Part shown: piece by piece, positions 15,242-57,340 of the stretch | Layout of the letters: each line of letters starts with the position of its first letter | Numbering within the stretch: position 1 is the stretch's first letter | Source: Clostridiales bacterium | GTDB taxonomy: Bacteria > Bacillota > Clostridia > Christensenellales > Aristaeellaceae | NCBI GenBank assembly: GCA_012523405.1 | Contig: JAAYIN010000045.1 | Coordinates: forward strand, 8,285 to 72,284 | Reading direction: 5' to 3' | Length of the DNA: 64,000 nt | The notes under the pieces: generated by a model | Told to the model about the DNA's origin: nothing | The model's input: the letters and a program-made list of their open reading frames with translations, nothing else | Databases searched by the model: none | Program-made: the position numbers and the translations under genes

Positions 15242-15254
15242 GGAGGTTATCTAA

Positions 15255-16175: not shown

Positions 16176-16244
16176 TCCTATCGTGACTCAAGGTGCATGG
16201 ATTGCATCATAAAAATATGAAAAATATGGAAGGGGACATTGTCA

Positions 16245-17924
16245 ATGAAGAAAATTCTTAGTCTAGTTCTTACTCTAGCAATGCTTTTGAGCATGGTAAG
16301 CGTCATTGGCGCAAGCGCTGAAGAAGCGGTTGGCTACACCTATGGCGACACATTCTACTCAGAAGAGCCCGTAACCTACAGCATGTATTTTAGCGATGCA
16401 AGCTGGTACCCCATGGTCGAAACTTGGGAAACAGAGGGCGTTTTCAAGAAGATTGAAGAGCTAACCAACGTAACCATCGATGTTCATTCTTATGACAGCG
16501 GCGATTACAACAGCAAGACAACCCTAGAGATCAACGCTGGACAGTCCGCATACATCATTCCTAAAGTGTATGACGAATCCCCCTTTGTTGACGGCGGCGC
16601 AGTTGTAGCAGTATCTGACTACGTTCAGTATATGCCCAATTACACCAATTTCTACGAGAGGTACGACCTCAAGGGCGACGTTGACACCATCGTTCGTTCC
16701 AATGGCAGCTACTATCGTCTACCTGGCATGCACGAGACTCCTTTGCAGGATTACACCCTCATGATCCGTGATGATATCTTCCAGGCAGCTGGCTATGATG
16801 TAGCAGCTCTTGAGAAGGACTGGACATGGGACGACCTTTGCGAGATCCTTGTCGGCGTAAAAGCTTATTTGGTAGCAGAAGGCAAGATCACAGAAGACAC
16901 TTACATCTGGAGCGACCTGTGGTGCGGCAGTGAGAGCGGACAGGGCAACGGCGGTAACCTGCTGAAACTTATCGCAGCAAGCTATGACGTTCCTTCCGGT
17001 TGGGCAGTCGGCAACGGCATGATGTTCGACGCTGAGAAGAATGAATGGTATTTCGCTTCCACAACCGAAGATTACAAGGAATTCGTTACTGTTGCTAACA
17101 AGTTCATCAGCAATGGCATCCTTGATCCCGAAACCTTCACACAGGATGATACCACCGCAACCAACAAGTTCTATAACGGCGAGACCGTTATCATGAGCAT
17201 GAACCGCGGTCAGTACACCACATGGATGAGCGGCCTTGAGACCGGTCTTGGCGAAGGCAACTACTCCACATATGTTACTGTTTATCCTAAAGGCTCCAAT
17301 AACTACGTGTCTGAGAACAGCCGTCTTGAGTGCGGTGTGATGATCTCAAACAATGCACTTAAAGCGCTTGGCGAAGATGGCTTCATCAAGATGATGCGCT
17401 TTGTTGACTGGCTCTGGTATGGCGAGCAGGCTTATGACCTCACCAAGTGGGGCGTTGAAGGCGAGACCTACGAAGTCGTAACTGACGAAGCAGGCAACGC
17501 TGTCAAGCAGCTTCTACCCGGCTTCAAGTGCGGCGGTCTTGGTATCTCCGGCGCTGAAGAAGATGTTGACATTCGCTTGCAATGGGGCTATGCAGGCGGT
17601 AACTTCTGGTATGGCCACTCCTTGGCACAGAACAGCGACAATTTCATTCCCGTCATTCGTGATTATTTCAACCGCATGGGCGAGTATCGTGACATCCGTC
17701 CGATCAACCCCTCTGTTGTAACAACCGAAGATGAGAACGAGCAGATGAACCTTTGGAAGACCCCTCTCATTGACAACGTCAATGCTTGGACACTTCAGTT
17801 CGTCACCGGACAAAAAGACATCACAGCTGATTGGGATGCTTATGTAGCAAGCTGCAACGGCCTCAATGCTGAGTCTTTGGCTCAGATGACCAACGAAGCA
17901 TACGCTCGTACACAGGCTGAATAA
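16245..17924 (+). CDS. Extracellular solute-binding protein (large LplA-type)
   Basis: RBS GGAAGGGGA, then the ATG at 16245. Signal peptide MKKILSLVLTLAMLLSMVSVIGASA. About 560 aa, typical of LplA-like oligosaccharide binders. Confidence 0.9.
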   Translation: MKKILSLVLTLAMLLSMVSVIGASAEEAVGYTYGDTFYSEEPVTYSMYFSDASWYPMVETWETEGVFKKIEELTNVTIDVHSYDSGDYNSKTTLEINAGQSAYIIPKVYDESPFVDGGAVVAVSDYVQYMPNYTNFYERYDLKGDVDTIVRSNGSYYRLPGMHETPLQDYTLMIRDDIFQAAGYDVAALEKDWTWDDLCEILVGVKAYLVAEGKITEDTYIWSDLWCGSESGQGNGGNLLKLIAASYDVPSGWAVGNGMMFDAEKNEWYFASTTEDYKEFVTVANKFISNGILDPETFTQDDTTATNKFYNGETVIMSMNRGQYTTWMSGLETGLGEGNYSTYVTVYPKGSNNYVSENSRLECGVMISNNALKALGEDGFIKMMRFVDWLWYGEQAYDLTKWGVEGETYEVVTDEAGNAVKQLLPGFKCGGLGISGAEEDVDIRLQWGYAGGNFWYGHSLAQNSDNFIPVIRDYFNRMGEYRDIRPINPSVVTTEDENEQMNLWKTPLIDNVNAWTLQFVTGQKDITADWDAYVASCNGLNAESLAQMTNEAYARTQAE

Positions 17925-40292: not shown

Positions 40293-43200
40293 ATGAAGAA
40301 ATCGAAGCGCAGGCAAATTCAAGTGCAGCAAGACCCTGATGAAATGCCTCGGCAGGAGCAGGATGAGCCCGTAGAAGCTGAAGCGGAGGGCACAGAAAAT
40401 GCTGATGAGCAGGTGACGATAAGGTCTGGCGGGCGAAAAGCACGTAAAAAGGCAAAAATGGAAGAACGCAAGGCGGCAAAGTCATTTGATAGCGAAGATG
40501 CATCGCTGGATGAGACGATCCGTGACTTGCCTCAGCCGCTTGAGGAAATGCATGCTAGGCGAAAGGCCATGCCGGAACTCATGCGCGAGAAACCGCAGGA
40601 TGTGTTTGCGGATGAAATCGAAGATGAGACGGGGGATGAAGTTGCTGGCGGAGATCAGCCGCTGGAATCGCCTGATCATCAGGATGAAGCGAATGACTCT
40701 GAGCCTCAGGAGCCAGAGGAGAACGATGAAGAAAACAAACCTGAAAAATCACCTCGAAAGCGCAAGCGTGATGAAGAGGCGGCGTATTTCTCGCGTGAAT
40801 CGGACCTGAAGAAGCGGACGGCACTGCGATATGCCAGATCACGCCGAAAAGCAGCCAGAGTGCTGCACACGCCCAATATCAACCGCACAGGCGTACCGCG
40901 CAAGAGTCATTTTTTCAGGAATAGCTTCCTAACGGTGCTTAGCCTTGGCGTGATTGTGCTAATCGGGGCGTTCTTTTATTTTGATATGGCCAACTGGCAA
41001 TCACTGGACGTGGATAGGATCACGGCGGCAGCGCAAACAGGGCGCATGTACGACAATGCAGGCGAGCTGATTACGGTGATTAAGGGCGTGGAAAACCGTG
41101 TGGTCATTCCGCTGGAAGAGATTCCGGAGGATATCCAGAATGTCTTTCTGGCGGCGGAGGATTTGCGCTTTTACAAGCATCACGGCATCGACTTTGTGCG
41201 CTTATTTGGTGCAGTGGTCGCAAACGTGAAGGAAGGCGGCTTTGCGCAAGGAGCGAGCACCATCACGATGCAGCTGATACGCCAAAGCCATTTGAGCACA
41301 CAAAAGACGATTGCCAGAAAACTTGAAGAAGTGTACCTTGCGTTTATGCTGGAGCAGTCGATGAGCAAGGACGATATCTTGGCAATGTATCTCAATTACA
41401 TCTATTTTGGCAATGGCGCATACGGTCTGCAAACCGCGGCGCAAACCTATTTTGGTGTGGATGCAAAGGACCTTAGCCTCACGCAAGCGGCTGCGCTTGC
41501 CTCATCCATCAAAGCGCCTAGCTACTATTCGCCCACTGCGAGCGAAAGCAACAACCGCTCCCGCAGGCGATATATTTTGGACACGATGCTAGAGCAAAAG
41601 ATGATCAGTCAGGATGAGCATGATAATGCAGCCAAAGCAGAGCTGGTTTTGGTGAAAAAGCCTGCCGAAGACCTGCCTTATGGATGGTTTGTAGATGCGG
41701 TGTTGGTTGAGGCGGAGAGCATTCTTGGCGTGAGCAGCGATCAGGTGCTGTCAGGCGGCTATACGATTGATACAACCCTTAGCCGAACGCATCAGGAAAC
41801 GCTTGAGAAACAGTTCAAAACCGATGTTTTTCCTGCAAAGGCAAGCGATGGTACAGCGGTGCAGGGCGCGGCGGCATGTGTGAATGTGAAAACAGGCGAA
41901 GTGCTTGCGGTGGTTGGCGGCCGTGAATACACGGTTAGGCGCGGGCTCAATAGGGCAACGCAGCTGCGCCGTCAACCTGGTTCATCGCTGAAGCCGCTTG
42001 TGGTATTCGCGCCTGCGATTGATCGATTTGGCTATATGACGGCAAGTGTGCTCAAAGATGAGCCGATCAACTTCAACGGTTACAAGCCAAGAAACAGCAG
42101 CTACACCTACTATGGCAATGTCAGCATACGATCAGCCATTACCAGCAGTCTAAACGTCTCGACCGTTTCGCTTTTTAATGATATTGGCGTGGCAGCGGGC
42201 AGAGAATACTTGGAGAAGGTCGGTATCCCGCTGGATGCGAGAGATGCGAGCCTATCCCTTGCCCTTGGCAGCATGACCTATGGCGTGTCGCCTGTACAGC
42301 TTGCAGCTGCATATTCACCGTTTGCCAATGGCGGTAAATTCTATTCGCCTCATTTCGTTCGCAAAATCACTGATCCAACAGGGCGCGTGGTGTACCAAAA
42401 CAGAGATTCTGGCACAAGGGTGATCAAGGAAACCACATCCTTTTTGATGACCAGCTTGCTTCAATCGGTCACTTCGTCGGGTACAGGCGCAAAGCTATCG
42501 GGCGCAGGAACGCCTGTAGCAGGTAAAACAGGTACGGTCAATATGACGGGCGGCGGCAACCGCGACATTTGGATGGCGGCATACAATAGCGAGATTTCAA
42601 CGGCATTTTGGATGGGCTTTGACGAATCCGACAGCAAACACAAGATGCAAAGCTGGGTCAGCGGCGGTGATAACACGGCTGCGATGGCGCGCAATTACTT
42701 CAAGGCGCTGTATCAAAACAGGAGCAAGCCGCAGTTTGCGTCTGCTCCCAAGGGTATCGTTGCACTTGAAATTGACAAGCAAGCAATCAAATGGCGTGGC
42801 GAAGCGATGCTTGCGGTGGATGTGACCCCCAAAGCCTATCGATATACGGAGTATTTCACTTCGGACAATCGCCCCACCAGAAAGAGCGATGTGTGGACAC
42901 CGCCTCGTTCAGCAAACAAATTCACGGTTGGGCATAGTGATCAGGGCTATCCGCAGCTGATGATTCAGCCGTCGGATACGGCGATCTACCGCGTACAGCG
43001 CGATACGGAGGGCGAGAGCTTTATCCTAACCGAACTATACGGTTCTGCCGGCGAAACCCTCTACTACACCGACACGTCCGCGCGGGCAGGCATCGTCTAC
43101 ACCTACCGCGTCATTCCGGTGCATGCGGAGCTTCTCAACAACGGCGTACTGCTGGAAGGTGTGCAGTCGGTGCAGGTGGCACAGGCGAGGATATCAGGCG

Positions 43201-43325
43201 GGCAGAGCATTTGGGACAGTGTCTTGGATTTCTTTGGCGGAGGGAAAACGGCAGAGGTTGAGCAAGATGTGGTGGAGAGCATGACGGAAAATCAAACATC
43301 GATCTTTTGGAACAACGCGCCGTAG
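40293..43325 (+). CDS. Class A penicillin-binding protein (glycosyltransferase plus transpeptidase) with a long charged N-terminal tail
   Basis: GT51 motifs AAEDLRFYKHHGID and GASTITMQL. Transpeptidase motifs SSLKP, SLN and KTGT. The C-terminus is Fn3-like. Confidence 0.9.
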   Translation: MKKSKRRQIQVQQDPDEMPRQEQDEPVEAEAEGTENADEQVTIRSGGRKARKKAKMEERKAAKSFDSEDASLDETIRDLPQPLEEMHARRKAMPELMREKPQDVFADEIEDETGDEVAGGDQPLESPDHQDEANDSEPQEPEENDEENKPEKSPRKRKRDEEAAYFSRESDLKKRTALRYARSRRKAARVLHTPNINRTGVPRKSHFFRNSFLTVLSLGVIVLIGAFFYFDMANWQSLDVDRITAAAQTGRMYDNAGELITVIKGVENRVVIPLEEIPEDIQNVFLAAEDLRFYKHHGIDFVRLFGAVVANVKEGGFAQGASTITMQLIRQSHLSTQKTIARKLEEVYLAFMLEQSMSKDDILAMYLNYIYFGNGAYGLQTAAQTYFGVDAKDLSLTQAAALASSIKAPSYYSPTASESNNRSRRRYILDTMLEQKMISQDEHDNAAKAELVLVKKPAEDLPYGWFVDAVLVEAESILGVSSDQVLSGGYTIDTTLSRTHQETLEKQFKTDVFPAKASDGTAVQGAAACVNVKTGEVLAVVGGREYTVRRGLNRATQLRRQPGSSLKPLVVFAPAIDRFGYMTASVLKDEPINFNGYKPRNSSYTYYGNVSIRSAITSSLNVSTVSLFNDIGVAAGREYLEKVGIPLDARDASLSLALGSMTYGVSPVQLAAAYSPFANGGKFYSPHFVRKITDPTGRVVYQNRDSGTRVIKETTSFLMTSLLQSVTSSGTGAKLSGAGTPVAGKTGTVNMTGGGNRDIWMAAYNSEISTAFWMGFDESDSKHKMQSWVSGGDNTAAMARNYFKALYQNRSKPQFASAPKGIVALEIDKQAIKWRGEAMLAVDVTPKAYRYTEYFTSDNRPTRKSDVWTPPRSANKFTVGHSDQGYPQLMIQPSDTAIYRVQRDTEGESFILTELYGSAGETLYYTDTSARAGIVYTYRVIPVHAELLNNGVLLEGVQSVQVAQARISGGQSIWDSVLDFFGGGKTAEVEQDVVESMTENQTSIFWNNAP

Positions 43326-43443: not shown

Positions 43444-43821
43444 ATGATTGATTTTCAAAATGCGAACTATCTCAAACTGAAAGCTGTTGCCCTCAATTCA
43501 TTTGAAAAGATGATTGCGCCCATGCTGGTTCAGGGCGAACAAATCATTGATGCATTCCAATCCGTGCGCGATGGTATTGTGTTCACAAACAAGCGCATAA
43601 TCGCGATCAATGTACAAGGCTTAACTGGTAAAAAGCGTGATTTCACTTCTCTTCCATACAATAAGATTCAATCTTTTTCTGTTGAAACAGCTGGCGTCAT
43701 GGATCTGGACAGTGAGCTAATCCTGTGGTTTTCAGGCATGGGCATGATCAAGTTTGAATTCACAGGCGGGTCAGATGTTTTTGGAATCGCTCGCATGATC
43801 TCTGGATTCGTGCTGGGGTAA
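43444..43821 (+). CDS. Bacterial PH-domain protein (YokE-like)
   Basis: GGGAGGG RBS. 125 aa. The block VFTNKRIIAINVQGLTGKKRDFTSLPYNKIQSFSVET is typical of bPH domains. Confidence 0.7.
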   Translation: MIDFQNANYLKLKAVALNSFEKMIAPMLVQGEQIIDAFQSVRDGIVFTNKRIIAINVQGLTGKKRDFTSLPYNKIQSFSVETAGVMDLDSELILWFSGMGMIKFEFTGGSDVFGIARMISGFVLG

Positions 43822-43842: not shown

Positions 43843-43870
43843 GCGGGCGGCTTTTAGTCGCCCGCTTTTT
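43843..43870 (+). terminator. Rho-independent terminator after the PH-domain gene
   Basis: Stem gcgggcg/cgcccgc followed by TTTTT. Confidence 0.75.
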
Positions 43871-43872
43871 GT

Positions 43873-43912
43873 ATGAAGAAAAGCCGCTCGATCCCTTAGG
43901 ATCAAGCGGCTT
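43873..43912 (-). terminator. Rho-independent terminator after the IclR gene
   Basis: 14-bp stem aagccgcttgatcc/ggatcgagcggctt on the - strand (one G-U pair), then TTTTCTT. Confidence 0.7.
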
Positions 43913-43975: not shown

Positions 43976-44767
43976 TTACTCCTCGTCTTGTGTATCATCG
44001 CATGCCCCTGTAATCTTTGTGGTGACTTTATCAGCAATGCTGCATAGCAAAGGTGCAAATTCAGTCTCATAAAGCAGCTTGGACATGCGTGAGATTGGAC
44101 CGGATATGCTGATGGCAGCACAAACGCGATCCATCACGTCATAAACCGGAACGGCAATGCAGCGCATGCCGATTTCGCATTCCTCATCATCAATAGCATA
44201 CCCGCGTTCTTTGCACTCTTTTAGTTCATACTGAAGGTCTTTTTTTGTTGTAATGGTATGCGGCGTGAGGGATAACAGACCTGCATCTTCGATATAGCGA
44301 TCCAGTTCCTCCTCGGTGTATTGCATCAAAAACAGCTTACCGCTGCCCGTGCAGTGCATTTTGCCAGAGTGACCAACCTGCTGGCGAATGGTGATCATGT
44401 TGCCGCGTCCCTCGATCACGTCGATGTAGCGTACCTTGTGATGATCTTCAATCGCAAGGCAGCAGGACTCTCCTGTAACCTGCGAGATTTGACCAAGGTA
44501 TGGATGGGCGATATCACGTATGCTGAAATGAGCCGCAGCCATTTGACCAATTTTCAAAAAACGCATTGTCAGCCCATAGCGGCAAGGTTCTTCCTCTTCT
44601 TGATAAGCGTAGCCCATGCATACAAGTGTCTTCGCCATTCTGAGGACAGTGCTGGCGGGCATAGAAACCATTTTTGATAATTCTGACAAGCGCAAGGGTG
44701 TGCTGGACTGCGCCAAGGCTTCGATAATTTTAAGTGTCTTTTCTACAGAATGATTACGGTTAGTCAT
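43976..44767 (-). CDS. IclR-family transcriptional regulator
   Basis: GGAGG lies upstream of the ATG at 44767. N-terminal wHTH (VEKTLKIIEALAQSSTPLRLSELSKMVSMPASTVLRMAKTL) and a C-terminal IclR effector domain. Confidence 0.9.
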   Translation of the reverse strand: MTNRNHSVEKTLKIIEALAQSSTPLRLSELSKMVSMPASTVLRMAKTLVCMGYAYQEEEEPCRYGLTMRFLKIGQMAAAHFSIRDIAHPYLGQISQVTGESCCLAIEDHHKVRYIDVIEGRGNMITIRQQVGHSGKMHCTGSGKLFLMQYTEEELDRYIEDAGLLSLTPHTITTKKDLQYELKECKERGYAIDDEECEIGMRCIAVPVYDVMDRVCAAISISGPISRMSKLLYETEFAPLLCSIADKVTTKITGACDDTQDEE

Positions 44768-45157
44768 TGAGTGTTTTCCTCCAATTAATCCCTTATATTG
44801 CGAAATATGCATGTCGTTTTCCGTATTGATATGCGGGTCATCGCCGTGTGTTTTGCCGATCAGCTAGCTATAAAAATTCGTTTTGATAGCTAAGCAGGCT
44901 TATGAGTTTCATTAATTATAATTCTATTTCATTTATACTATGATATCTGGGTTCTGTCAAGCATTGATGGGTAAATATTGTAATTATTTGCTAGGTTTTG
45001 GTATTTGTACTACAATTGGGGAAATTCAAACCGATGATTATATTGATATCACATCATATCTCAAATGAATGTCTTGATTGTTGTGTGTGAAGTATTTCAC
45101 TCGATATAATCAAATGCGAAATCATATTATAATCATGATATTTCCATCATGGATAGG

Positions 45158-45187
45158 TTGACATTCATCAGTTATTTGTGTTAATAT
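45158..45187 (+). promoter_or_regulatory. Candidate sigma-A promoter of the ThDP-enzyme gene
   Basis: TTGACA (45158-45163), 18-nt spacer, TAATAT (45182-45187). Confidence 0.5.
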
Positions 45188-45202
45188 AAATCATAAACGT
45201 CG

Positions 45203-45217
45203 TTTCATTAAATGAAA
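45203..45217. promoter_or_regulatory. Palindromic operator candidate TTTCAT-TAA-ATGAAA
   Basis: Perfect 6+3+6 inverted repeat 16 nt downstream of the predicted -10. The same core occurs at 54141-54155. Confidence 0.5.
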
Positions 45218-45297
45218 TCATATTGTCTTTTTAAAGGTTATCACATCAAGAGAACAACAACAAATTACATCGTTAACGTAAATAGTGGGAGGATACC

Positions 45298-46998
45298 GTG
45301 TTGAAAATAACAGTTTCGGAAGCTCTGGTTCAAATTCTGGTTAAGGAAGGCGTGACAACAGCCTTCGGCATTCCCGGTGCTGCGATTAATCCGGTTTATA
45401 AGTATTTAGAGAATGCGCCTATTGAACACTATACAATGCGTCATGAGGAAGCCTGTGTACATGCGGCTGATGGCTATTACCGTGCGAAGCACGAAATCGC
45501 GATCGCTATTTGTTCCGCTGGACCTGGTGCGACGAACTTCGTTACTGGCCTATATACAGCGTTGATCGATTCTATGCCTGTTTTCGCTATCGTCGGTCAG
45601 GCGAACAGCAATCAACTCACACAGGAGCCTTTCCAGTGTGTCGATATGCCGCAAATCGCGAAGACCGTTACCAAAAAAGCTTGGAGTCTGCATACCCCGC
45701 AGGATTTGCCTGCGATGGTCAAGGAAGCCTTCTATGTGATGCGCAGCGGTCGACCTGGCCCTGTGCTCTTGGAGTTACCCCTAGATATGCAAAAAGCAGA
45801 GATTGACTTTGATATTGATGATTATCTGCCTGCTGAAATTCCCGTTGCTGCTCCTGCAGCTGAGGATATCGACAAGGCTGTTTTGATCCTTAAGAATGCC
45901 AAAGCCCCCGTCATCATCATGGGCGGCGGATGCGTGCTATCCGATTGCACCGCAGATGTCGTTGCGCTTGCTGAATATCTTCAGGCTCCGGTCATCACCA
46001 CCTATATGGCAAAGGGCGGCATTCCCGTGCAGCACCCGCTCAATGCAGGGCATATGGGCATACAGGTAGGTCAACCGATTGGCAACCGCGTATTCCTTGA
46101 TTCGGACGTAGTGCTGGGCATTGGTTGCCGCTTCTCAGATCGCCATACGGGTGATCTTGAAACTTATTGCAAGGGACGTACATTCATTCATATCAACATT
46201 GAGGAGTCGCAAATCGGGTTGGTGTTTAAGCCAGACCTCGGGATCGTGTCGGATGCGAAGCTTGCAACAGCCGCGTTGTTATCAGCGGTTAAGAAAGCTG
46301 GCCTCAAGCCTGTAAATCAGGAGTACGTTAAAGCTCTTCCTGCGCTTCGCAAGGAACTTGCTCGCAAGACCGATTATGACTGCGCGCCCATGATGCCTCA
46401 CCGTGTTTTTCAAGAGGTCAACGAAGCATTTGATACAAATACCACCTATTTCACATCAGGCTGTGGAATTACGCAGATTTGGAGCGGTCAGTTGCAGGAC
46501 ATCAACGCAGCAGGCATGTATCTGCCTTCAGGCGGCGCAGGTACGCTTGGGTTTGAGATCCCTGCTTTACTGGGCATTAAGGTGGCTAAGCCGGATCACA
46601 CTGCCGTAACGGTGGTTGGCGATTTTGGACTGACATTCATGGGTGAAGAAATCGCAGTCGCCTCTGTTTATCAAAAGCCGATCATTGTGATCGTGCTGAA
46701 TAATGCTTATCTCGGCTTGATTCGTCAAAACCAAAAGGGTTACGGATTTGAGTATGCCGTGGATATGCCTTACAATCAGGATGGCACAATCGACTATGTG
46801 AAGCTTGGCGAGGCATATGGCTGCAATGCAGAGCGAGTGTTCTCTCCCAAGGAGCTTAGGGATGCTTTGATTCGCGCAAAAGCATCATCCGAGGCATCGG
46901 GAAGAAGTTATCTGATTGATGCGATTTGCGTCAAAACCCAGCTTTGTGACATGGGTGGTTCCATCGCTAATATCAAGTCTTGGGCACCAGAAGTGTAA
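45298..46998 (+). CDS. Thiamine-diphosphate enzyme, glyoxylate carboligase / acetolactate synthase family
   Basis: Blocks GIPGAAINP, MRSGRPGPVLLELP, GIGCRFSDRHTGDLETYCKGRTFIHINIE..QIG...PDLGIVSDAK, GDFGLTF and NNAYLGLIRQNQ. From memory these track E. coli Gcl closely. RHEE keeps the cofactor-activating Glu. Confidence 0.85.
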   Translation: MLKITVSEALVQILVKEGVTTAFGIPGAAINPVYKYLENAPIEHYTMRHEEACVHAADGYYRAKHEIAIAICSAGPGATNFVTGLYTALIDSMPVFAIVGQANSNQLTQEPFQCVDMPQIAKTVTKKAWSLHTPQDLPAMVKEAFYVMRSGRPGPVLLELPLDMQKAEIDFDIDDYLPAEIPVAAPAAEDIDKAVLILKNAKAPVIIMGGGCVLSDCTADVVALAEYLQAPVITTYMAKGGIPVQHPLNAGHMGIQVGQPIGNRVFLDSDVVLGIGCRFSDRHTGDLETYCKGRTFIHINIEESQIGLVFKPDLGIVSDAKLATAALLSAVKKAGLKPVNQEYVKALPALRKELARKTDYDCAPMMPHRVFQEVNEAFDTNTTYFTSGCGITQIWSGQLQDINAAGMYLPSGGAGTLGFEIPALLGIKVAKPDHTAVTVVGDFGLTFMGEEIAVASVYQKPIIVIVLNNAYLGLIRQNQKGYGFEYAVDMPYNQDGTIDYVKLGEAYGCNAERVFSPKELRDALIRAKASSEASGRSYLIDAICVKTQLCDMGGSIANIKSWAPEV

Positions 46999-47022
46999 TT
47001 GAATCGTGTTTTTCATCTTGAC

Positions 47023-47055
47023 TACGGCGGCTGTGTGAAGCAACGCCGTATTTTT
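47023..47055 (+). terminator. Weak terminator candidate after the ThDP-enzyme gene
   Basis: 7-bp stem tacggcg/cgccgta with a 14-nt loop, followed by TTTTT. Confidence 0.45.
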
Positions 47056-47060
47056 GCTGG

Positions 47061-47093
47061 ATAAAGTGCCGTCCCCATGCAGAGGACGGCACT
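47061..47093 (-). terminator. Hairpin after the dehydrogenase gene (weak U-tract)
   Basis: 10-bp stem agtgccgtcc/ggacggcact, followed on the - strand only by TTAT. Confidence 0.4.
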
Positions 47094-47117
47094 TGCAATG
47101 ATGGCAGCTGCGGATGC

Positions 47118-48083
47118 TTATGCATTCACAACGTTTATGGGCTGCCCTTTGAGAAATGATTGGATATTCGCCACAGTGCAATCCAAAATGCGCTGCCTGC
47201 TCTCCCGCGGTGCCCATGAGATATGGGGGGTGATGATGCAATTGGGTGCATCGAGCAGAGGATTATTATCTTGAATTGGCTCAGTCGAAACGACGTCTAC
47301 TGCCGCTGCGGCAACCTTACCCGATTTTAACGCATCTGCGAGGTCTTGTTCGACCACAAGCGGACCGCGTGAGTTGTTAATCAGAATCACACCGGATTTC
47401 ATTTTGCTGATGTTTTCACTGCAAATGATGCCCTGCGTATCTGGAAAGAGCGGGCAATGCAGCACAATAACATCTGATTGCCTGAGCAATTCATCCAGAG
47501 CGACATAATTTGCAATCTCGTGCCCGCTATCGGTGGGAACGTTATCCACGGCTAAAATGTTCATGCCTAACGCTTTGGCAATTCTTCCTGTTGCTTGTCC
47601 GATACGGCCAAAACCGATGATGCCCATCGTTTTACCATCTAGCTCAATCAGCGGTTTTTTCCAAAAGCACCAGTCAGGGTTGGTTTGCCATTCACCTGAG
47701 TGAACCGCATTGCTGTGCAACGCTACGCTGCTGCATATTTCCAGCAGCAGGGCGATTGCGAATTGTGCCACGGAAGCCGTGCCGTAAGTGGGTACGTTTG
47801 CAACAGGAATGCCCCTCCTCTTTGCCGAAGCTGTATCAACCACGTTATAGCCAGTGGCTAGCACACCGATGAATTGCAGGCCCGGGCAGGCGGCAAGCGT
47901 AGTATCGGTCAGAGGTGTTTTGTTGGTCAATACGATCTGTGCATCACAAATACGGTCGATGATTTGGCTTTCGTTCGTGATATCTGTGCGATCATATACC
48001 ACAACGTCACCGATTGCCTCAAGCGGCGACCAAGACAAATCACCTGGATTCTCCGTATAGCCATCTAAAATCACGATTTTCAT
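47118..48083 (-). CDS. D-2-hydroxyacid dehydrogenase, glycerate dehydrogenase/hydroxypyruvate reductase-like
   Basis: N-terminus MKIVILDGYTENPGDLSW. NAD motif GIIGFGRIGQATG. Catalytic region INNSRGPLV...VDVV..EP...ITPHISW. Confidence 0.9.
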   Translation of the reverse strand: MKIVILDGYTENPGDLSWSPLEAIGDVVVYDRTDITNESQIIDRICDAQIVLTNKTPLTDTTLAACPGLQFIGVLATGYNVVDTASAKRRGIPVANVPTYGTASVAQFAIALLLEICSSVALHSNAVHSGEWQTNPDWCFWKKPLIELDGKTMGIIGFGRIGQATGRIAKALGMNILAVDNVPTDSGHEIANYVALDELLRQSDVIVLHCPLFPDTQGIICSENISKMKSGVILINNSRGPLVVEQDLADALKSGKVAAAAVDVVSTEPIQDNNPLLDAPNCIITPHISWAPRESRQRILDCTVANIQSFLKGQPINVVNA

Positions 48084-48101
48084 GTCTGGGTATCCACCCT
48101 T

Positions 48102-49001
48102 CTATTCATCTTCAAGGAGCGACCAAGCACGGTTGATGACACGCTTGGTATTGGCAAGAATCAAATCTTCTTCTTCATCGCCCCATGGCTTTACTTCGAT
48201 GCTGAGCACATAGGGGTTGTCGGCGCAGAAGAAGCCTTCCTGTTTGAGCACCTTGAAGTAATCAAGCAGCTCTGCAACATCATTTGCACCATCCTTGAAG
48301 CCAAAGCGCGGATGCATATCACCATACGCTTCGCAGTCAGCTTTCACTACTGCGTTGCCAAGATGCAGATGCGTAATGTAGGGACGGAGGGTGCGAATCA
48401 CATCATGGCTAGTTTCATATGTGATGGGGAAGTGGCTTAGATCAACAATCAAGCCAAAATTGGGATGTTTGCACCGAACGTCCCCGGCAAATCGCGCTGC
48501 TAAGGGGGCGGGGCCGATGAGTGCAGCTTTGTCCAGATCGTAGTCGAAGACTTCAAGCTCTACAATCATGTTCTTGGGCTGCGCGGCATGGCAAACAGCG
48601 CAAGTTGTTTTAACCAGCTGCTGATAGGCTTGGTCAAAGGTTTCTGGTTCCCATTTGCCGGCTAGAAATGCAATCCCCTTGGCGCCGAGATATTCAGCTT
48701 CGTCAAGTGCTGCGATCAAGGCATCTTCAGCCTTTTTACGTTCTGTTTCGTCTATCGCATTCGGATTTAGATTGCCACTGAGCAGCGTTGGCTGTGCTCC
48801 GTAGCACACGCGCATATGGGATTGCTCCAGCAGCGTTTTGGCTTGCTTGCGTTTATGTTCGTCTTGAAAATGACAAAGTTCGATTGCATCAAAATAGTCA
48901 TCCGATGCAATATCCCGAATCGATTGTATAACCTCTCGCTTCGGATGGCTCATCCATTGGATTACGCCAACTTGGAAGTACTTATGAATGGATTCGCGCA
49001 T
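48102..49001 (-). CDS. Xylose-isomerase-like TIM-barrel protein (sugar phosphate isomerase/epimerase family)
   Basis: GAAGGAG lies 8 nt upstream of the ATG at 49001. AP_endonuc_2-type blocks: LGAKGIAFLAG, IVELEVFD, LIVDLSHF, THLHLGN, SIEVKP. Confidence 0.8.
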   Translation of the reverse strand: MRESIHKYFQVGVIQWMSHPKREVIQSIRDIASDDYFDAIELCHFQDEHKRKQAKTLLEQSHMRVCYGAQPTLLSGNLNPNAIDETERKKAEDALIAALDEAEYLGAKGIAFLAGKWEPETFDQAYQQLVKTTCAVCHAAQPKNMIVELEVFDYDLDKAALIGPAPLAARFAGDVRCKHPNFGLIVDLSHFPITYETSHDVIRTLRPYITHLHLGNAVVKADCEAYGDMHPRFGFKDGANDVAELLDYFKVLKQEGFFCADNPYVLSIEVKPWGDEEEDLILANTKRVINRAWSLLEDE

Positions 49002-49137
49002 GATGGTCACTCCTTCACTTATTCGTTTTTTATTAATGATTTGATTGGATGGGCATCTTGGATGTCCTTGGGTAGATGCATGTCCGTTGCGATCAATACA
49101 GGTAATGCCTGTTGGCACCGGCAACCCATGGTGAGAG

Positions 49138-50541
49138 TTAGATGAGGGTAGGATCAATGCCTAGCATAACTTGTAAACGCCTAATATCGATATCACCTAC
49201 GTTAACGCCGCTGCTCACGGATAGTGCTGCTGCTGCGCCGGCAGCTTCGCCTGTAATCATACAAGGAGGCTGGTTGCGTAGGTGCTTATTTGCCATGATA
49301 TCGCAAGAAACAATTTTGCCGGCAACCAGTATACGTTTGGAATCCTTGGGAATCAAGATGCGGTATGGAATTTGATACTCAACGTAATCCGCGATAGCTT
49401 CGCGAATAACGGTATCTTTTTCACTGCCCTCTCCGCCGTCCGGACTATGCCCTTCGCCCTTGAACCCCAAAACCTGCCTGTTTTTGCCGATTCCGATACA
49501 GTCCGTGAAAACCACCTGATCGGTGATGTCGTCCTCGGTCATTTTATATTCGCCGACAATGCGGCGAGAATCGCGGACACCAATGCTCTGCGCGGAGGTA
49601 AGCAGATAGCAGTTTTCTAGTCCCGGAATATAACTGCGCATAAACTTCAGCAATTGTTTTTGCTGCTTGCGTGCTGAGATGACAGCTGCGGATATATCAT
49701 CGCCGCTCGTGCCATCGACTTTGTAGATCCTGATGGTATTAACGGTTCCGATGCCCTTGTCCGCAAAGATGCTTTCAATGCGGAAATAGTGGAATGTATC
49801 GTCCAAATCACCGTTTTCGCGCGCTTTTCTAACCAAATCAAAAAAGCCGAAGATGCGCAGCTCACCTAATTCCATATTCACGATGCATTGGTTTGGATCG
49901 GGAGCAAACTGTGATGGGTTTTCCTGAACATAGGATACGAGGCGATTGACATCAATGCCGCCAATTGAAAACAGCAATGTCATGGGGCGCATCATCTGAT
50001 CGGATTCTCTGCCCATCATATAGGCGTAGTCCGCTGCTGCACACACATCCCCATCGCCGCTGGCATCCACGATTCTGCAAGCTAGTATAGCGCTGAAGCC
50101 TGATTTGTTAAGCGTGCATACCCCTGCGATGTCTGCATTGTCCCTGATCACATCAACCACCCAAGTATCCAGCAGAAGGCGGACGCCTGCTTCTTGGAGC
50201 ATATCGAACATTTCAAGGGTACATTGCTCAATGTCAAAAGGAACCGTTTCGTCGGGAATAGCTGCTTTTTTAGCAACCAATCTTTCAAACAGCTCTTTGC
50301 CAATGCCTGTTAGTCCGTTATACGGTGCGTAAAACAGATTCATCAGACCGGCTGTTGCAGTACCGCCGATTGTTTGTGTGCGTTCGATTAGGCACACTGA
50401 AGCTCCGTTTCTGGCGGCAGAAACAGCAGCGGCAAAGCCAGCCAATCCTCCGCCAGCGACAAGAACATCAAACCGCTTGGTCGCAGGGAAAGAGATGGTT
50501 CCTTTGGCGAAATTCTTGTCATCATTTAAAAGCAAATTCAT
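49138..50541 (-). CDS. FAD-dependent oxidoreductase (PF12831 FAD_oxidored-like)
   Basis: FDVLVAGGGLAGFAAAVSAARNGASVCLIERTQTIGGTAT. Confidence 0.85.
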   Translation of the reverse strand: MNLLLNDDKNFAKGTISFPATKRFDVLVAGGGLAGFAAAVSAARNGASVCLIERTQTIGGTATAGLMNLFYAPYNGLTGIGKELFERLVAKKAAIPDETVPFDIEQCTLEMFDMLQEAGVRLLLDTWVVDVIRDNADIAGVCTLNKSGFSAILACRIVDASGDGDVCAAADYAYMMGRESDQMMRPMTLLFSIGGIDVNRLVSYVQENPSQFAPDPNQCIVNMELGELRIFGFFDLVRKARENGDLDDTFHYFRIESIFADKGIGTVNTIRIYKVDGTSGDDISAAVISARKQQKQLLKFMRSYIPGLENCYLLTSAQSIGVRDSRRIVGEYKMTEDDITDQVVFTDCIGIGKNRQVLGFKGEGHSPDGGEGSEKDTVIREAIADYVEYQIPYRILIPKDSKRILVAGKIVSCDIMANKHLRNQPPCMITGEAAGAAAALSVSSGVNVGDIDIRRLQVMLGIDPTLI

Positions 50542-50567
50542 AGTTGCATCTTTCCTTTTCTGAATGA

Positions 50568-51398
50568 TCAGCCTTTTACAGCACCGGCGGTTAGACCGTT
50601 AATGAACTCTTTTTGCAGGAATTGAAATAAAATAGAGGATGGCAGAAGCGCTATGCAGGCTGCCGCCATAACGGTGCCCCAACGTATCTCGCTCATCTCG
50701 CTGATGAACTCGGAGATTTTGACGGGCAGTGTTTTCATGACCTGCTTGGTCATGATGACAGAGGAGTACAGATATTCGTTCCACGAGTTAATGAGCGCAT
50801 ACGTCAGAATGGCTGCGATCCCGGGTGCGGAAAGGGGAATGATAACGCTGAGAAATGTGCGGATCGCTCCTGCTCCGTCGATGATGGCACTCTCGTCAAT
50901 CGACTTAGGTATCGTATCCATATAACTGCGAAGCAGGAAGATACCATAGGGGATGGTAAACGTCGTATGCGTAATAATCAAACCAAAATAGTTGTTTGTG
51001 AGCCCAAGACCAGCGATGATCATATATAGCGGCAAAACCAGCAAAATAGCAGGGAATACATACGCAAATATGATCGATGCACTCATCACTTGTTTCATAG
51101 GGAAAGTATACCGAGATAGCGCATAGGCACCCATTGTCACAACCACAAGGTTGACAAGCATCGTGCCAAAGGATACGGCAAAGCTATTGAAGATATTGCG
51201 TACAATGGGCGTAGTGTAGAGAATCTCTTCATACCACTGCGTGGTAAGTTGCTTTGGAACAAGGCTGAAATCAGTTGTAAAGAATTCAGTTGCAGGCTTT
51301 AATGATGTGAAAAATACGTTAATCACCGGGAAGAGAATGACGAGAGCCAGAAGGAATGTCACACCAGTAAAGCACCATCGTTTGGCGTTAGTACTCAT
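50568..51398 (-). CDS. Carbohydrate ABC transporter permease (MalG type)
   Basis: 6 TM helices and the EAA loop IDESAIIDGAGAIRTFLSVIIP. Confidence 0.9.
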   Translation of the reverse strand: MSTNAKRWCFTGVTFLLALVILFPVINVFFTSLKPATEFFTTDFSLVPKQLTTQWYEEILYTTPIVRNIFNSFAVSFGTMLVNLVVVTMGAYALSRYTFPMKQVMSASIIFAYVFPAILLVLPLYMIIAGLGLTNNYFGLIITHTTFTIPYGIFLLRSYMDTIPKSIDESAIIDGAGAIRTFLSVIIPLSAPGIAAILTYALINSWNEYLYSSVIMTKQVMKTLPVKISEFISEMSEIRWGTVMAAACIALLPSSILFQFLQKEFINGLTAGAVKG

Positions 51399-52279
51399 CT
51401 TAATTCCTCCTCGTTGCTGCGATTCATACGGAAATAAACCATGACTAGGATTAACAGCACCATAAACATCAGCATTGCGATGGCGGAAGCTTCACCGAAG
51501 CGGTAGCTGCCAAAGGCGCTCTTATAGATCAAGATTGGCAGGAGCTCGGTGGATGATGCGGGGCCGCCGCGTGTGAGCTGCCAAGTTAGGTCAAAGAAGT
51601 TGAATACCCATATGGCGCGGAATAGAATAATGGTAGCTATTGCATTGCGGATAATGGGCAAGGTGATATAAATGGTGCGTTTGAAAGTGGACGCGCCATC
51701 AATAATCGCGGCTTCGGTTAATTCCTGGGGGATGGCTTGAAGAGCTGATAAAAAGCTAATCATCATAAGCGGATAGCCGCGCCAGATATTCACTAGGATA
51801 ACCGTTGGCAGTGCTGTGCTTACAGTTGCCAAAAACGGAAATCTCTGCGCTGTTATTCCCAAAGTATATAGGTAATAGGTGATGGCACCCCAACGTTCAT
51901 GTAGCATCATTTGCCAAGCTAAAGCGGTTACAACGGTTGGCAAAACCCATGGAAGAATAAACAATGAACGAAACAGTCCAGAACCATGCAATTTGGTGTT
52001 GAGCAAAAGTGCAAAAATAATTGCCAGCACAGCTTGCCCAGCCAAGGAAACAACCGAGTAGATAATACTGTTGCCCAAAGCATTAAGGAATTGAGGACTG
52101 CTTAAAAGGTCTCTGTAGTTTTGCAGACCAATAAAGGCATCTTTTTTGGTGAACCAGTTAAAATCGCGAAAACTAAGGTAGACAGTACGGACAAAGGGAT
52201 AGGCAACAAAACTCGAAAAGAAGATCAATGCTGGTAGAAAGAATAAAAAGCCGGTTAATTGTCGTTTCCGGATGCTCAA
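51395..52279 (-). CDS. Carbohydrate ABC transporter permease (MalF type)
   Basis: 6 TM helices and the EAA loop LTEAAIIDGASTFKRTIYITLP. A 4-nt overlap with the next gene. Confidence 0.9.
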   Translation of the reverse strand: MSIRKRQLTGFLFFLPALIFFSSFVAYPFVRTVYLSFRDFNWFTKKDAFIGLQNYRDLLSSPQFLNALGNSIIYSVVSLAGQAVLAIIFALLLNTKLHGSGLFRSLFILPWVLPTVVTALAWQMMLHERWGAITYYLYTLGITAQRFPFLATVSTALPTVILVNIWRGYPLMMISFLSALQAIPQELTEAAIIDGASTFKRTIYITLPIIRNAIATIILFRAIWVFNFFDLTWQLTRGGPASSTELLPILIYKSAFGSYRFGEASAIAMLMFMVLLILVMVYFRMNRSNEEELR

Positions 52280-52353
52280 AGTAACAACCCCCTCTGGCGG
52301 TTATGCTACGGGGAAGCCGTTTGTTACGACGGCTTCCCCGCAATGACAAGGAA

Positions 52354-53730
52354 TCACTTCGCGTAGGGTCCCTCGATTGGGTAGCTATACTCAACCATTA
52401 AATCTTGGAAGCCTTTATCAAGCATATTATATGCCTCTTCAATGGGCATGCCGTTGAAGAGATAGGCTTGGAAGGCGTCGCTTGCAAACAGCGTTGCAGA
52501 GATTTGACCAGCTAATACGGAAGGGCCGGCTTCAAAGCCAACGCGGGTGCAGTGAGGAAGAATGTTCTCCATGATATAGGAGATGTCGTCTAGGAACATG
52601 GCGGTTACAGGGTCGTTCTTAAAAATAGGTGATTCAAGAACGCTTTGCATGACCGGAATGTTGTACACAGGACGAGCGGTCGTTTCTAGTGCTACGTTGT
52701 CAGGCTGATAGACGAATTCGATCCATTTTTCAACAGCTGCTTGTTTAGCTGCGTCTTCAGTCTTTGTGACGGACCAGTACCAGCCGCCAAAGTCATGGAT
52801 GGCTGTGTCTGTGGTGCTGGGTCCAGTGGGATGAGCAATGACGCACAGGTTACTGAGCATATCGGGATTCACTTCAGCAGCGATGCCAATATCTCCGCCC
52901 CATGAAGAGGTGAAACCAAGTTCGCCGTTGGCCATTGCGGTACGATAGTCGGCCCATTTCCAGTTTGATACGCCGCTGGGAAGCTGACCGTTGTCAAACA
53001 GTTTTTTGATGTATTCCATAGCTTCGATGATTTTGACTTTGGTATCTTCCTGATTGAGCAGATAAGCGCCAGTTTGAGGATCAAAGTAGTAAGCTCCGTT
53101 TGCATATGACCAGATGAACAACTGTTGTTGTGCACACTGTTCACGTGCAAGTGCCATACCCATAGCGGTGATCCCATCGCCTTCAATAGCTGCCATTGCG
53201 CTATCTAGATCATCCCATGTCTTGATGCTATAGGGATCGATTCCTGCTTCTTCTAAAAGGTCTTGGCGAGTCCAGAGACAGTTGATGTTAACGGAAAAAG
53301 GAATGCCATACAGATTGCCGTCGCCTCCACGCGCACTGTTTACAGCTGCCGTGGCGTTTGCAAAATCTGTGCCATCTGGGTCCATCTTTGCAAACAAGTC
53401 ATCCATTGGCGCGATGATATCCTGTGCAACGAGCCATGAAACCTCGCTTTGATCAAGCTGGCACATATCAGGACAGTCATCATTCATGATGGCAGTCATC
53501 CAACGCGTATACCAGTCAGAATGTGATACATACTCCACGGTTATCGATATATCCGGATTTTCTTTTTGGAAGGTATCGATCAGGGTTTCTTGAACGGCTT
53601 TGTCGGCATTGGAGGTCAGCGGTGTCCAGAAAATGAGTTCAACATTTTCGGCGGCTAATACGGTGGCGGGCAACAGAGTGCAAAGTACACACAGGGCTGT
53701 TACGAGTGCGATAGACTTAAGATGTTTCAT
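52354..53730 (-). CDS. Sugar ABC transporter substrate-binding protein (family 1)
   Basis: GGAGGG lies 6 nt upstream of the ATG at 53730. Signal peptide MKHLKSIALVTALCVLCTLLPATVLAA. Confidence 0.9.
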   Translation of the reverse strand: MKHLKSIALVTALCVLCTLLPATVLAAENVELIFWTPLTSNADKAVQETLIDTFQKENPDISITVEYVSHSDWYTRWMTAIMNDDCPDMCQLDQSEVSWLVAQDIIAPMDDLFAKMDPDGTDFANATAAVNSARGGDGNLYGIPFSVNINCLWTRQDLLEEAGIDPYSIKTWDDLDSAMAAIEGDGITAMGMALAREQCAQQQLFIWSYANGAYYFDPQTGAYLLNQEDTKVKIIEAMEYIKKLFDNGQLPSGVSNWKWADYRTAMANGELGFTSSWGGDIGIAAEVNPDMLSNLCVIAHPTGPSTTDTAIHDFGGWYWSVTKTEDAAKQAAVEKWIEFVYQPDNVALETTARPVYNIPVMQSVLESPIFKNDPVTAMFLDDISYIMENILPHCTRVGFEAGPSVLAGQISATLFASDAFQAYLFNGMPIEEAYNMLDKGFQDLMVEYSYPIEGPYAK

Positions 53731-53995
53731 GAAATACCCTCCTGCAAAAATATTTTCTTGGCGCCATGCCATTTGGAAACAAAGTATGTTGGATTTACGT
53801 TAGATAGTGAAACGATCTGTTTACGCGGGTCGGGGCTGCCATGCTTTCCTACTGCACCCTTCCCCTTCGCAAAACAAATCTTCTCTTGTTGGTCTTGATG
53901 AGTATCAGAATAGAGTGATCCCATTAATCAATGTTAGATTTAACCTCCTTTGCAAATCTGACGTTTCAATATGTGAAATTATATTTCTTAAAATG

Positions 53996-54024
53996 ATTAT
54001 ATCATAAAGTTTTCATGAATGCAA
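53996..54024 (-). promoter_or_regulatory. Near-consensus sigma-A promoter of the ABC/FAD/TIM/dehydrogenase operon
   Basis: On the - strand: TTGCAT (54024-54019), 17-nt spacer, TATAAT (54001-53996). The spacer contains TTCATGAA (54012-54019). Confidence 0.6.
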
Positions 54025-54137
54025 CCCTCATATTTTAGTTTTTTACACTTTTATAAAGCAATCAAAAATACATTGCTAACACATGTGTGATAATGATTAC
54101 GATCATCCCAATTATTGTAAATATCTATTTCGACATA

Positions 54138-54158
54138 GCGTTTCATATAATGAAACGC
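54138..54158. promoter_or_regulatory. Perfect 21-bp palindrome GCGTTTCAT-ATA-ATGAAACGC (operator candidate)
   Basis: Perfect 9+3+9 inverted repeat with the same TTTCAT-N3-ATGAAA core as 45203-45217. It lies about 115 bp upstream of the -35 at 54024. Confidence 0.5.
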
Positions 54159-54252
54159 AAGACGGTCAAAATAGGCCCTACGACTATGAAAAGTGCAATA
54201 TGCCAGAGATCCTGCCAATTACAGCGATCGATGAGATGCACGCTACATCAGC

Positions 54253-54276
54253 AAAAAAACATCCCCGAAAGGGATG
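54253..54276 (-). terminator. Orphan rho-independent terminator with no upstream ORF
   Basis: Stem catccc/gggatg, loop cgaaa, then U7 on the - strand (A7 at 54253-59 on +). Confidence 0.55.
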
Positions 54277-54464
54277 CTCAAATAAATATGAAGTATTTCG
54301 TTAACTGTTATTCTATGAAGTGATCGTAGATTGCTTGTTTTGACGAACAAATAGTAAGCAAAGACTTTGTCAATCAATGTCTCTTATTCCTTGTTTTTTC
54401 AGTTCTCATATGGTCCTAATGTCAGGCACTCGCTCTCTTTTGAAATTAAGAGGACATATGGCAT

Positions 54465-54524
54465 AATCAGGGTGTGTAAATTAGCCACTCTGATTTCTGC
54501 AAATCCGCAAAGAATCAGGGTGTG
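54465..54524 (+). repeat. Two direct copies of AATCAGGGTGTG, which matches an internal segment of the adjacent tRNA-Lys in inverted orientation
   Basis: Copies at 54465-54476 and 54513-54524. The tRNA sense strand contains TAATCAGGGTGT (anticodon-stem 3' side plus variable loop). Confidence 0.7.
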
Positions 54525-54534
54525 GAAAAATTTC

Positions 54535-54578
54535 CAATAAAAAACCGCAAACCTATATAAATACAAGGTTTGCGGTTT
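54535..54578 (-). terminator. Rho-independent terminator of tRNA-Lys
   Basis: 12-bp stem aaaccgcaaacc/ggtttgcggttt, then TTTTT on the - strand. Confidence 0.8.
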
Positions 54579-54581
54579 GGG

Positions 54582-54658
54582 TGGTACACCATCAGGGATT
54601 CGAACCCTGGACACCCTGATTAAGAGTCAGGTGCTCTAGCCAACTGAGCTAATGGTGC
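54582..54658 (-). tRNA. tRNA-Lys (anticodon CUU), CCA encoded
   Basis: The reverse complement is GCACCAT TA GCTC AGTTGGCTA GAGC A CCTGA CTCTTAA TCAGG GTGTC CAGGG TTCGAAT CCCTG ATGGTGT A CCA. It folds as a full cloverleaf with a GTTCGAAT T-loop, 77 nt. Confidence 0.95.
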
Positions 54659-57255: not shown

Positions 57256-57340
57256 CTGTTTCAACTGCTTTCAATTATATACTTTACAAAGCGTGCATGA
57301 TGCCTTATGCTTGTCCTAGTTTTGAATTTGGAGGGTACTA

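Follow-up and report, generated by a model that had tools for sequence, protein, structure and literature searches.

In Escherichia coli the genes gcl, hyi, glxR and glxK are controlled by AllR as part of the allantoin regulon, and Pseudomonas aeruginosa has an equivalent cluster, PA1498-PA1502 (PMC12694930). The window considered here, a 64,000-nucleotide stretch of contig JAAYIN010000045.1 (positions 8,285 to 72,284, forward strand; assembly GCA_012523405.1) from a Clostridiales bacterium of the Aristaeellaceae, contains at 43976-53730 a locus that resembles the E. coli system in having a thiamine diphosphate (ThDP) enzyme of the glyoxylate carboligase (Gcl) family, a triosephosphate isomerase (TIM) barrel protein of PF01261, an NAD(P)-dependent reductase and an adjacent AllR-like regulator of the IclR family. 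Unlike the E. coli system, its ThDP enzyme has Glu for Val51, Asp for Asn283 and Lys for Arg484 and scores below the Gcl cutoffs, its TIM barrel is not a Hyi orthologue, its reductase is a D-2-hydroxyacid dehydrogenase and not a member of the GlxR/GarR family, its glycerate kinase is encoded elsewhere and there are no allantoin genes in the window.

Other described systems bear on the remaining genes. Firmicute CUT1 importers commonly share an ATPase, MsmX, encoded elsewhere, and Bacillus subtilis FrlONM, which takes up Amadori compounds, is one of them; like such importers the locus has a single SBP_bac_1 protein of lipoprotein type and two BPD_transp_1 permeases in an operon without an ATPase gene, but unlike those of the FrlONM type its solute-binding protein (SBP) is without a close characterised relative. 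Glycine oxidase, glyphosate oxidoreductase and iminodiacetate oxidase are flavoenzymes that free glyoxylate by oxidative C-N cleavage, and by analogy the flavin adenine dinucleotide (FAD)-dependent oxidoreductase of the locus is proposed to make glyoxylate from a substituted C2 unit, though it belongs to PF12831 rather than to their DAO family (PF01266) and has template modelling (TM) scores to them of no more than 0.45. Keto- and C-glycoside cleavage systems are alike in that a single operon encodes an oxidoreductase together with a TIM barrel of PF01261 and an importer for sugars; they differ in having GFO or GMC oxidoreductases in place of PF12831, and comparative genomics assigns the TIM barrel of the window to its Gcl-like genes.

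An earlier note on this DNA had described a minus-strand operon for the SBP, two permeases, the PF12831 enzyme, the TIM barrel and the dehydrogenase, convergent with a ThDP enzyme gene that is itself divergent from an IclR gene, and the open reading frame (ORF) map together with Pfam and NCBIfam profiles finds all eight genes on those strands. Its remark that an ATPase gene is lacking also holds: there is no ATP-binding cassette (ABC) ATPase gene in the locus, and six TOBE_2-type genes elsewhere in the genome are candidates to serve the importer. The co-occurrence check that it proposed found the same genes together in seven further loci (the near-duplicates L013 and L014 counted once; handles of this kind denote the loci compared), and given this recurrence the arrangement is more than chance. 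The note was right that the combination matches no characterised pathway, but what it missed is that the locus is built of two modules, A (ThDP enzyme, TIM barrel, dehydrogenase) and B (SBP, two permeases, PF12831 flavoenzyme). This is a real and conserved locus of modular build, and it offers a good lead for the discovery of enzymes.

The Gcl-like enzyme and its partners

In characterised Gcl a Val (V51 in E. coli) replaces the canonical cofactor-activating Glu. The ThDP enzyme of the window keeps that Glu, its RHEE aligning to the RHVE of Gcl structures 2pan and 8beo, as do all 15 of the 15 members of its clade examined; the NNAYLGLIRQ block is retained, and the signature positions are identical in importer-linked and allantoin-linked members. 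Gcl models are its best NCBIfam matches, yet it falls below their cutoffs (NF008431, 609.5 bits versus 791; TIGR01504, 502.3 versus 711.2). Gcl is also its nearest solved relative (449 bits versus 270 for the best acetolactate synthase), and its identity to E. coli Gcl is 41-43%. It is probably a tartronate-semialdehyde synthase. Sulfoacetaldehyde chemistry of the Xsc type was considered and rejected, the Xsc model scoring 276 bits versus 609 for Gcl, and so was an IolD-like role. The flavoenzyme is far rarer than this clade, of which there are more than 120 clusters at or above 67% identity (Eubacteriales, Oscillospiraceae, Enterococcus). Nearer to the window, searches of 24 genomes of the same genus and 16 of the same order did not find the gene, and it is present in 6 of 399 sampled genomes of the class.

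E. coli Hyi gave no BLASTP match to the TIM barrel at E<=1e-3, and the only NCBIfam match of the latter is a weak one to IolO. Its structural model (predicted local distance difference test, pLDDT, 87.6) has as nearest folds the ketose 3-epimerases and the Hyi-like proteins 1k77 and 3ngf, these two at TM 0.68 with the ketose 3-epimerases equal or better, and the 3-keto-D-glucoside 4-epimerase YcjR is also near. The dehydrogenase is of PF00389/PF02826 and not of PF03446, the 3-hydroxyisobutyrate dehydrogenase fold of GlxR and GarR; its PRK06487 score of 330.8 bits is under the cutoff of 448, and its solved relatives (130-150 bits) include glyoxylate/hydroxypyruvate reductases (GRHPR) and glycerate dehydrogenases. 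The TIM barrel is probably a tartronate semialdehyde/hydroxypyruvate isomerase, without being a Hyi orthologue, and the dehydrogenase probably a hydroxypyruvate reductase, otherwise called D-glycerate dehydrogenase. Since a 2-oxoacid reductase requires hydroxypyruvate and not the aldehyde, we infer a logical role for the isomerase.

It is the company kept by their orthologues that points to these functions. As with hyi and glxR in E. coli, the Firmicute partners adjoin the Gcl-like gene in clusters with allantoin-gene orthologues. In L022, where the ThDP enzyme, TIM barrel and dehydrogenase are 76%, 68% and 66% identical to those of the window, the IclR gene is divergent from TIM barrel-dehydrogenase-ThDP genes that are followed by an acetate-kinase-family gene, homologues of AllF and AllG and a PF11392 (AllH) gene. 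In L023 from Enterococcus sp. (68%, 61% and 58%) it is divergent from ThDP-TIM barrel-dehydrogenase genes, after which come a glxK homologue, a cupin gene and orthologues of allC, allW and allB, with identities to the E. coli proteins of 40%, 60%, 56% and 58% for glxK, allC, allW and allB, respectively. Beside the IclR and ThDP genes of L044 are allE, allC, allW and allB, and the genes that accompany the ThDP gene in L041 encode a GarL-like aldolase, a homologue of Hyi and a reductase resembling GlxR. In the anaerobic degradation of allantoin, AllFGH acts as the oxamic transcarbamylase (PMC11326118). The acetate-kinase-family gene of L022 (PF00871; 10706-11908) has the Gcl-like gene on one side and the gene for the AllF homologue on the other, whereas E. 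coli allFGH is adjoined by a carbamate kinase gene of another family.

With orthologues at 58-76% identity in allantoin clusters, one of which has a glxK homologue, the first suggestion of the earlier note, a gcl-hyi-glxR-like route, gains support for the ThDP enzyme, the TIM barrel and the dehydrogenase. The comparison supports viewing module A as the Firmicute version of gcl-hyi-glxR, predicted to lead from glyoxylate to glycerate and recognisable but non-canonical. Two glycerate kinase genes are present elsewhere in the genome.

The importer-flavoenzyme cassette and its associations

The flavoenzyme matches PF12831 over its full length and above the gathering score (324 bits, profile positions 1-415 of 416). 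A search of solved structures with its sequence gave no close relative, just generic flavoprotein matches, and Foldseek with its model (pLDDT 93.4) likewise matched generic flavoproteins with two dinucleotide-binding domains, such as geranylgeranyl reductases, halogenases, FixC and fumarate reductases (TM <=0.48, identity <=15%), with glycine oxidase and sarcosine oxidase among the remote matches (TM <=0.45). Solved structures related to the SBP are distant binders of sugars and glycerol-3-phosphate, the best at an E-value of 2e-15 over the N-terminal third only. A characterised relative of importer or flavoenzyme was not found, nor in the open literature searched a characterised function for PF12831; literature searches on Gcl-like enzymes, the gene combination, carboxymethyl/glyoxylate flavoenzymes and metabolic reconstruction of Breznakiellaceae returned nothing relevant.

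Homologues of the flavoenzyme are rare: four clusters exceed 60% identity, a further tier lies at 50-56%, and 36 same-genus genomes contain nothing closer than a match of 36% identity. A scan of species representatives found nothing with a single-protein query, but an alignment-based scan found four spirochaete genomes, and a metagenome scan with the flavoenzyme yielded one contig, L031. The cassette of importer and flavoenzyme as a whole is also rare: of the species representatives four, all spirochaetes, have it, as do a few contigs from metagenomes.

Within the clade of the window flavoenzyme (at least 50% identity) a Gcl-like gene lies beside it in seven of eight loci (the window, L013, L016, L017, L029, L030 and L031, with L015 the exception). 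Six of the seven have an IclR orthologue adjoining the Gcl-like gene, none being detected on L031, a 6.7-kb contig. In L013, whose flavoenzyme is 74% identical, the IclR gene is divergent from ThDP-TIM barrel-dehydrogenase-SBP-permease-permease-FAD, seven genes on one strand. In Breznakiella homolactica (L016) it is divergent from ThDP-SBP-permease-permease-FAD-Fe-ADH, the last gene being for an iron-type alcohol dehydrogenase (Fe-ADH), and in L017 of the Spirochaetia from SBP-permease-permease-FAD-ThDP and nothing else, a core repeated in two Spirochaetaceae metagenome-assembled genomes (L029, L030) and on L031. In these last four loci the flavoenzyme and the ThDP enzyme are the only enzyme genes of the cluster.

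Might the ThDP enzyme then not be a glyoxylate carboligase at all, but one that decarboxylates the keto product of the flavoenzyme or cleaves a C-C bond in it, following the logic of IolG/IolE/IolD in the catabolism of inositol, so that flavoenzyme and ThDP enzyme make up a pathway of two steps for the solute, with the TIM barrel and dehydrogenase, where present, tidying up the product? The two-enzyme clusters would suit such a scheme, as would scores under the Gcl cutoffs and a catalytic Glu typical of ordinary ThDP enzymes. However, members of this clade that are 68-76% identical and do not differ at the signature positions are found in allantoin clusters that have neither flavoenzyme nor importer, and the importer-linked members of the clade are polyphyletic and so constitute no specialised subgroup. 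We consider this scheme improbable, though deserving of some weight.

Two other PF12831 clades, about 30% identical to that of the window, are likewise encoded with a CUT1 importer next to genes for a Gcl-like enzyme and an IclR protein. One locus, L021, has genes in the order zinc-type alcohol dehydrogenase-GFO-SBP-permease-permease-GH5 (glycoside hydrolase family 5)-PF12831-Fe-ADH, divergent from ThDP-IclR-glycerate kinase, and its GH5 protein is nearest to a putative beta-xylosidase. The other, L042, has its IclR gene divergent from the ThDP gene, followed by SBP-permease-permease, an 851-aa protein and PF12831. The 851-aa protein (14977-17532), between the ABC permeases and PF12831, has no match in Pfam or among solved structures and may represent an unrecognised family of glycosidases or lyases.

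That GH5 and this large protein are encoded in PF12831 operons, that the importer is of the sugar (CUT1) type and that the TIM-barrel fold is near YcjR would all accord with the second suggestion of the earlier note, oxidative glycoside cleavage, where the flavoenzyme would make a keto-glycoside from which the TIM barrel, as lyase or isomerase, would free the aglycone. The distribution of the TIM barrel does not support it. The TIM barrel tracks the Gcl-like gene and the dehydrogenase, and not the flavoenzyme: L022 and L023 have it with the Gcl-like gene and without flavoenzyme or importer, and it is missing from all the spirochaete loci that have flavoenzyme and importer. To our knowledge, moreover, the known keto-glycoside systems use GFO/IDH/MocA or GMC oxidoreductases and not PF12831, and we regard glycoside cleavage of this kind as very unlikely here.

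L016 and L021, both without TIM barrel and dehydrogenase, have instead the Fe-ADH (427-430 aa, 53% identical). This is unusually long, follows the PF12831 gene in two operons that are otherwise different (L016 11404-12696; L021 1-484) and is under every NCBIfam cutoff. It may be a tartronate semialdehyde reductase, or else part of the flavoenzyme chemistry; if the former, Fe-ADH on the one hand and TIM barrel plus dehydrogenase on the other would be alternative routes from tartronate semialdehyde to glycerate.

How did the two modules come together? In a maximum-likelihood tree the importer-linked ThDP enzymes are polyphyletic, well-supported branches forcing at least three changes, and the enzymes of the window, L021 and the allantoin-linked L022 group at 100/100 support, apart from those of L013 and the spirochaetes. 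The importer and flavoenzyme of the window are 74-87% identical to those of L013 (SBP 83%; permeases 87% for 50568-51398 and 84% for 51395-52279), but the proteins of module A only 58-67%. Polyphyly and these unequal identities indicate that the importer-flavoenzyme cassette joined resident Gcl genes repeatedly.

The exceptional locus, L015 (on a contig of GCA_024712465.1), has importer and flavoenzyme 65-81% identical to those of the window, the SBP at 81%, with a shortened IclR protein (232 aa, weak helix-turn-helix); this copy sits among small ORFs without Pfam matches. Alphaproteobacterial relatives, with flavoenzymes 48-50% identical, have a different, weakly PhnS-like SBP and an ATPase.

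With E. coli AllR the regulator shares 31% identity, and it scores under the cutoffs of all the equivalog models concerned (AllR, 109 bits versus 406; IclR, 127 versus 380; BhcR, 165 versus 350). The palindrome TTTCAT-N3-ATGAAA has exactly two perfect matches in the window, both in promoter regions of the locus; by dinucleotide-preserving shuffles of AT-rich intergenic regions each has P ~6e-4, and both together arose in 0 of 20,000. Related boxes are found in other loci: ATTTCAATAAATGAAAT in the intergenic regions next to the IclR gene in L013 and L022, and ATTTCATATATTGAAAT upstream of the SBP gene of L015. L022 is without an importer yet has the box, so box and regulator belong to the Gcl module, and the importer operon of the window appears from its putative operator to have been brought under the same control.

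These observations bear on whether the modules are merely neighbours, with the carbon of the solute bypassing glyoxylate and the adjacency due to mobile-island history or to shared regulation. The locus was not found in the 36 same-genus genomes nor in the same-order genomes searched, and so looks acquired, and neither L015 nor the alphaproteobacterial relatives have a Gcl-like gene nearby, as mere proximity would allow. But the link formed independently at least three times on the ThDP tree and recurs with the two other PF12831 clades, all seven L013 genes are on one strand and the same palindrome is at both promoters of the window; we think it distinctly unlikely that the modules are without metabolic coupling.

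A proposed route from imported solute to glycerate

From the observed gene content, orthology, recurrent co-location and common palindrome we infer every enzymatic step of the following scheme and its effector, and above all its substrate and the flavoenzyme reaction. The reading that we favour, at somewhat better than even probability, is a route under IclR control: the flavoenzyme would oxidise a solute brought in by the importer, glyoxylate would be released and glycerate made from it. The CUT1 importer, energised by a shared MsmX-type ATPase encoded elsewhere, would take up a small sugar-like solute; its oxidation by the PF12831 flavoenzyme would free glyoxylate into module A, and the rest of the solute would enter central metabolism without dedicated enzymes. 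The Gcl-like enzyme would convert two glyoxylate to tartronate semialdehyde and CO2, the TIM barrel tartronate semialdehyde to hydroxypyruvate and the dehydrogenase hydroxypyruvate to D-glycerate, which a glycerate kinase encoded elsewhere would phosphorylate. An IclR/AllR-like repressor would bind the TTTCAT-N3-ATGAAA boxes in both promoters and, by analogy with AllR and IclR, would probably be released by glyoxylate or a related small acid.

Release of glyoxylate is proposed because glyoxylate is the substrate of the Gcl-like partner that is almost always present, which makes it the most economical reading. That the flavoenzyme is the glyoxylate-releasing first enzyme acting on the imported solute, by a reaction previously undescribed, is a more tentative proposition, to which we give somewhat less than even weight. 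The flavoenzyme might, for instance, oxidatively cleave a C-N or C-O bond in a sugar-like compound that is N- or O-carboxymethylated or bears glycolate; candidate solutes include sugar-like or amine scaffolds that carry substituted C2 units.

Several points weigh against the route. The ThDP enzyme is under both Gcl equivalog cutoffs, and its reaction could differ from that of characterised Gcl, in which Val51 stands in place of its Glu. No sequence similarity is detectable between the TIM barrel and E. coli Hyi, and the fold of the TIM barrel is equally near to sugar 3-epimerases and to Hyi-like proteins. The fold matches of the flavoenzyme are generic only, the relatives of the SBP are remote binders of sugars or glycerol-3-phosphate, and neither points to a particular substrate. 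In hosts that are probably anaerobic, the locus encodes no electron acceptor for a flavin dehydrogenase. Finally, L015 has importer and flavoenzyme without a Gcl-like gene, and the alphaproteobacterial relatives have no ThDP gene nearby.

Independently of the solute, there is a widespread Gcl-like clade in Firmicutes and spirochaetes that keeps the catalytic Glu absent from textbook Gcl and whose partners are not orthologues of Hyi or GlxR. Current equivalog models overlook it, so annotations of gut anaerobes probably underestimate glyoxylate assimilation. If the proposal for the flavoenzyme is true, it would provide a first biochemical function for the large PF12831 family and, in gut anaerobes (spirochaetes of the termite gut and Clostridia-like Firmicutes), a new way into the glycerate pathway. 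With PF12831 tied in three separate clades to sugar-type importers and a glyoxylate sink, the chemistry is directly testable, and B. homolactica, one of the hosts, is cultured and so offers a defined experimental system.

Gene map, putative control sites and flanks

Two starts merit mention. That of the SBP gene, 53730, where the earlier note had ended the locus, is an ATG with GGAGGG upstream, and that of the TIM-barrel gene is corrected from the ORF-track position 49157 to an ATG at 49001 with AAGGAG upstream. The two hairpins between the convergent genes were read directly from the sequence, the terminator scanner not having flagged them, and are likely terminators. An Rfam scan detected no riboswitch in either leader.

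Table 1. Features of the locus (positions in the window)
Feature	Position	Strand	Details
IclR-family regulator, AllR-like	43976..44812	-	278 aa; HTH_IclR + IclR_C (Pfam)
Gcl-like ThDP enzyme, Glu-type (putative)	45298..46998	+	565-566 aa; three TPP domains
D-2-hydroxyacid dehydrogenase	47118..48083	-	321 aa; Pfam 2-Hacid_dh + 2-Hacid_dh_C
Xylose-isomerase-like TIM barrel, AP_endonuc_2	48102..49001	-	299 aa; PF01261
PF12831 FAD-dependent oxidoreductase	49138..50541	-	467 aa; 324 bits
ABC permease, MalG/UgpE/GlcU-like	50568..51398	-	276 aa; BPD_transp_1
ABC permease, UgpA/MalF-like	51395..52279	-	294 aa; BPD_transp_1
CUT1-type solute-binding protein	52354..53730	-	458 aa; SBP_bac_1 + SBP_bac_8
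Terminator-like hairpin	43881..43912	-	14-bp stem + T tail; downstream of IclR gene; left boundary of locus
Two hairpins between convergent ThDP and dehydrogenase genes	47024..47092		ACGGCG...CGCCGT then ATTTTT; GTGCCGTCC...GGACGGCAC
Promoter-like site, IclR gene	45037..45064	-	TTGAGA-16-TATAAT, 11/12; consensus match only
Promoter-like site, ThDP gene	45158..45187	+	TTGACA-18-TAATAT with TG extension; consensus match only
Operator-like palindrome	45203..45217		TTTCATTAAATGAAA; 16 nt downstream of -10 of ThDP promoter
Promoter-like site, importer operon	53978..54005	-	ATGATA-16-TATAAT; leader ~250 nt
Operator-like palindrome	54141..54155		TTTCATATAATGAAA; core of 21-bp perfect palindrome GCGTTTCATATAATGAAACGC, upstream of importer operon

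Beyond the SBP start, 53731-54581 is AT-rich and non-coding and holds the operator-like and promoter-like sites of the importer operon, and a tRNA-Lys (CTT) gene lies at 54582-54658 (minus strand), about 850 bp away. A tRNA gene beside a locus that is missing in relatives may mark an integration site; in an empty-site comparison with same-genus genomes the two genes that flank the locus were on different contigs or about 23 kb apart. Further out, 54799-57264 (minus strand) is a GH2 beta-mannosidase-like gene (Glyco_hydro_2_N2, Mannosidase_ig) which, being kept at 60-71% identity in 18 of 36 other genomes of the genus, is part of the core genome rather than of the locus.

Immediately to the left of the locus, 43444-43821 (plus strand) encodes a bacterial PH-domain protein (bPH_1) with a strong terminator of its own at 43843-43865. 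Before it, 40293-43325 (plus strand) encodes a protein of 1010 aa to which alignments of same-genus orthologues usually start at query residue 100-170, indicating that its charged N-terminal tail is variable, and five of its relatives have one in-frame TAG or TGA inside the match.

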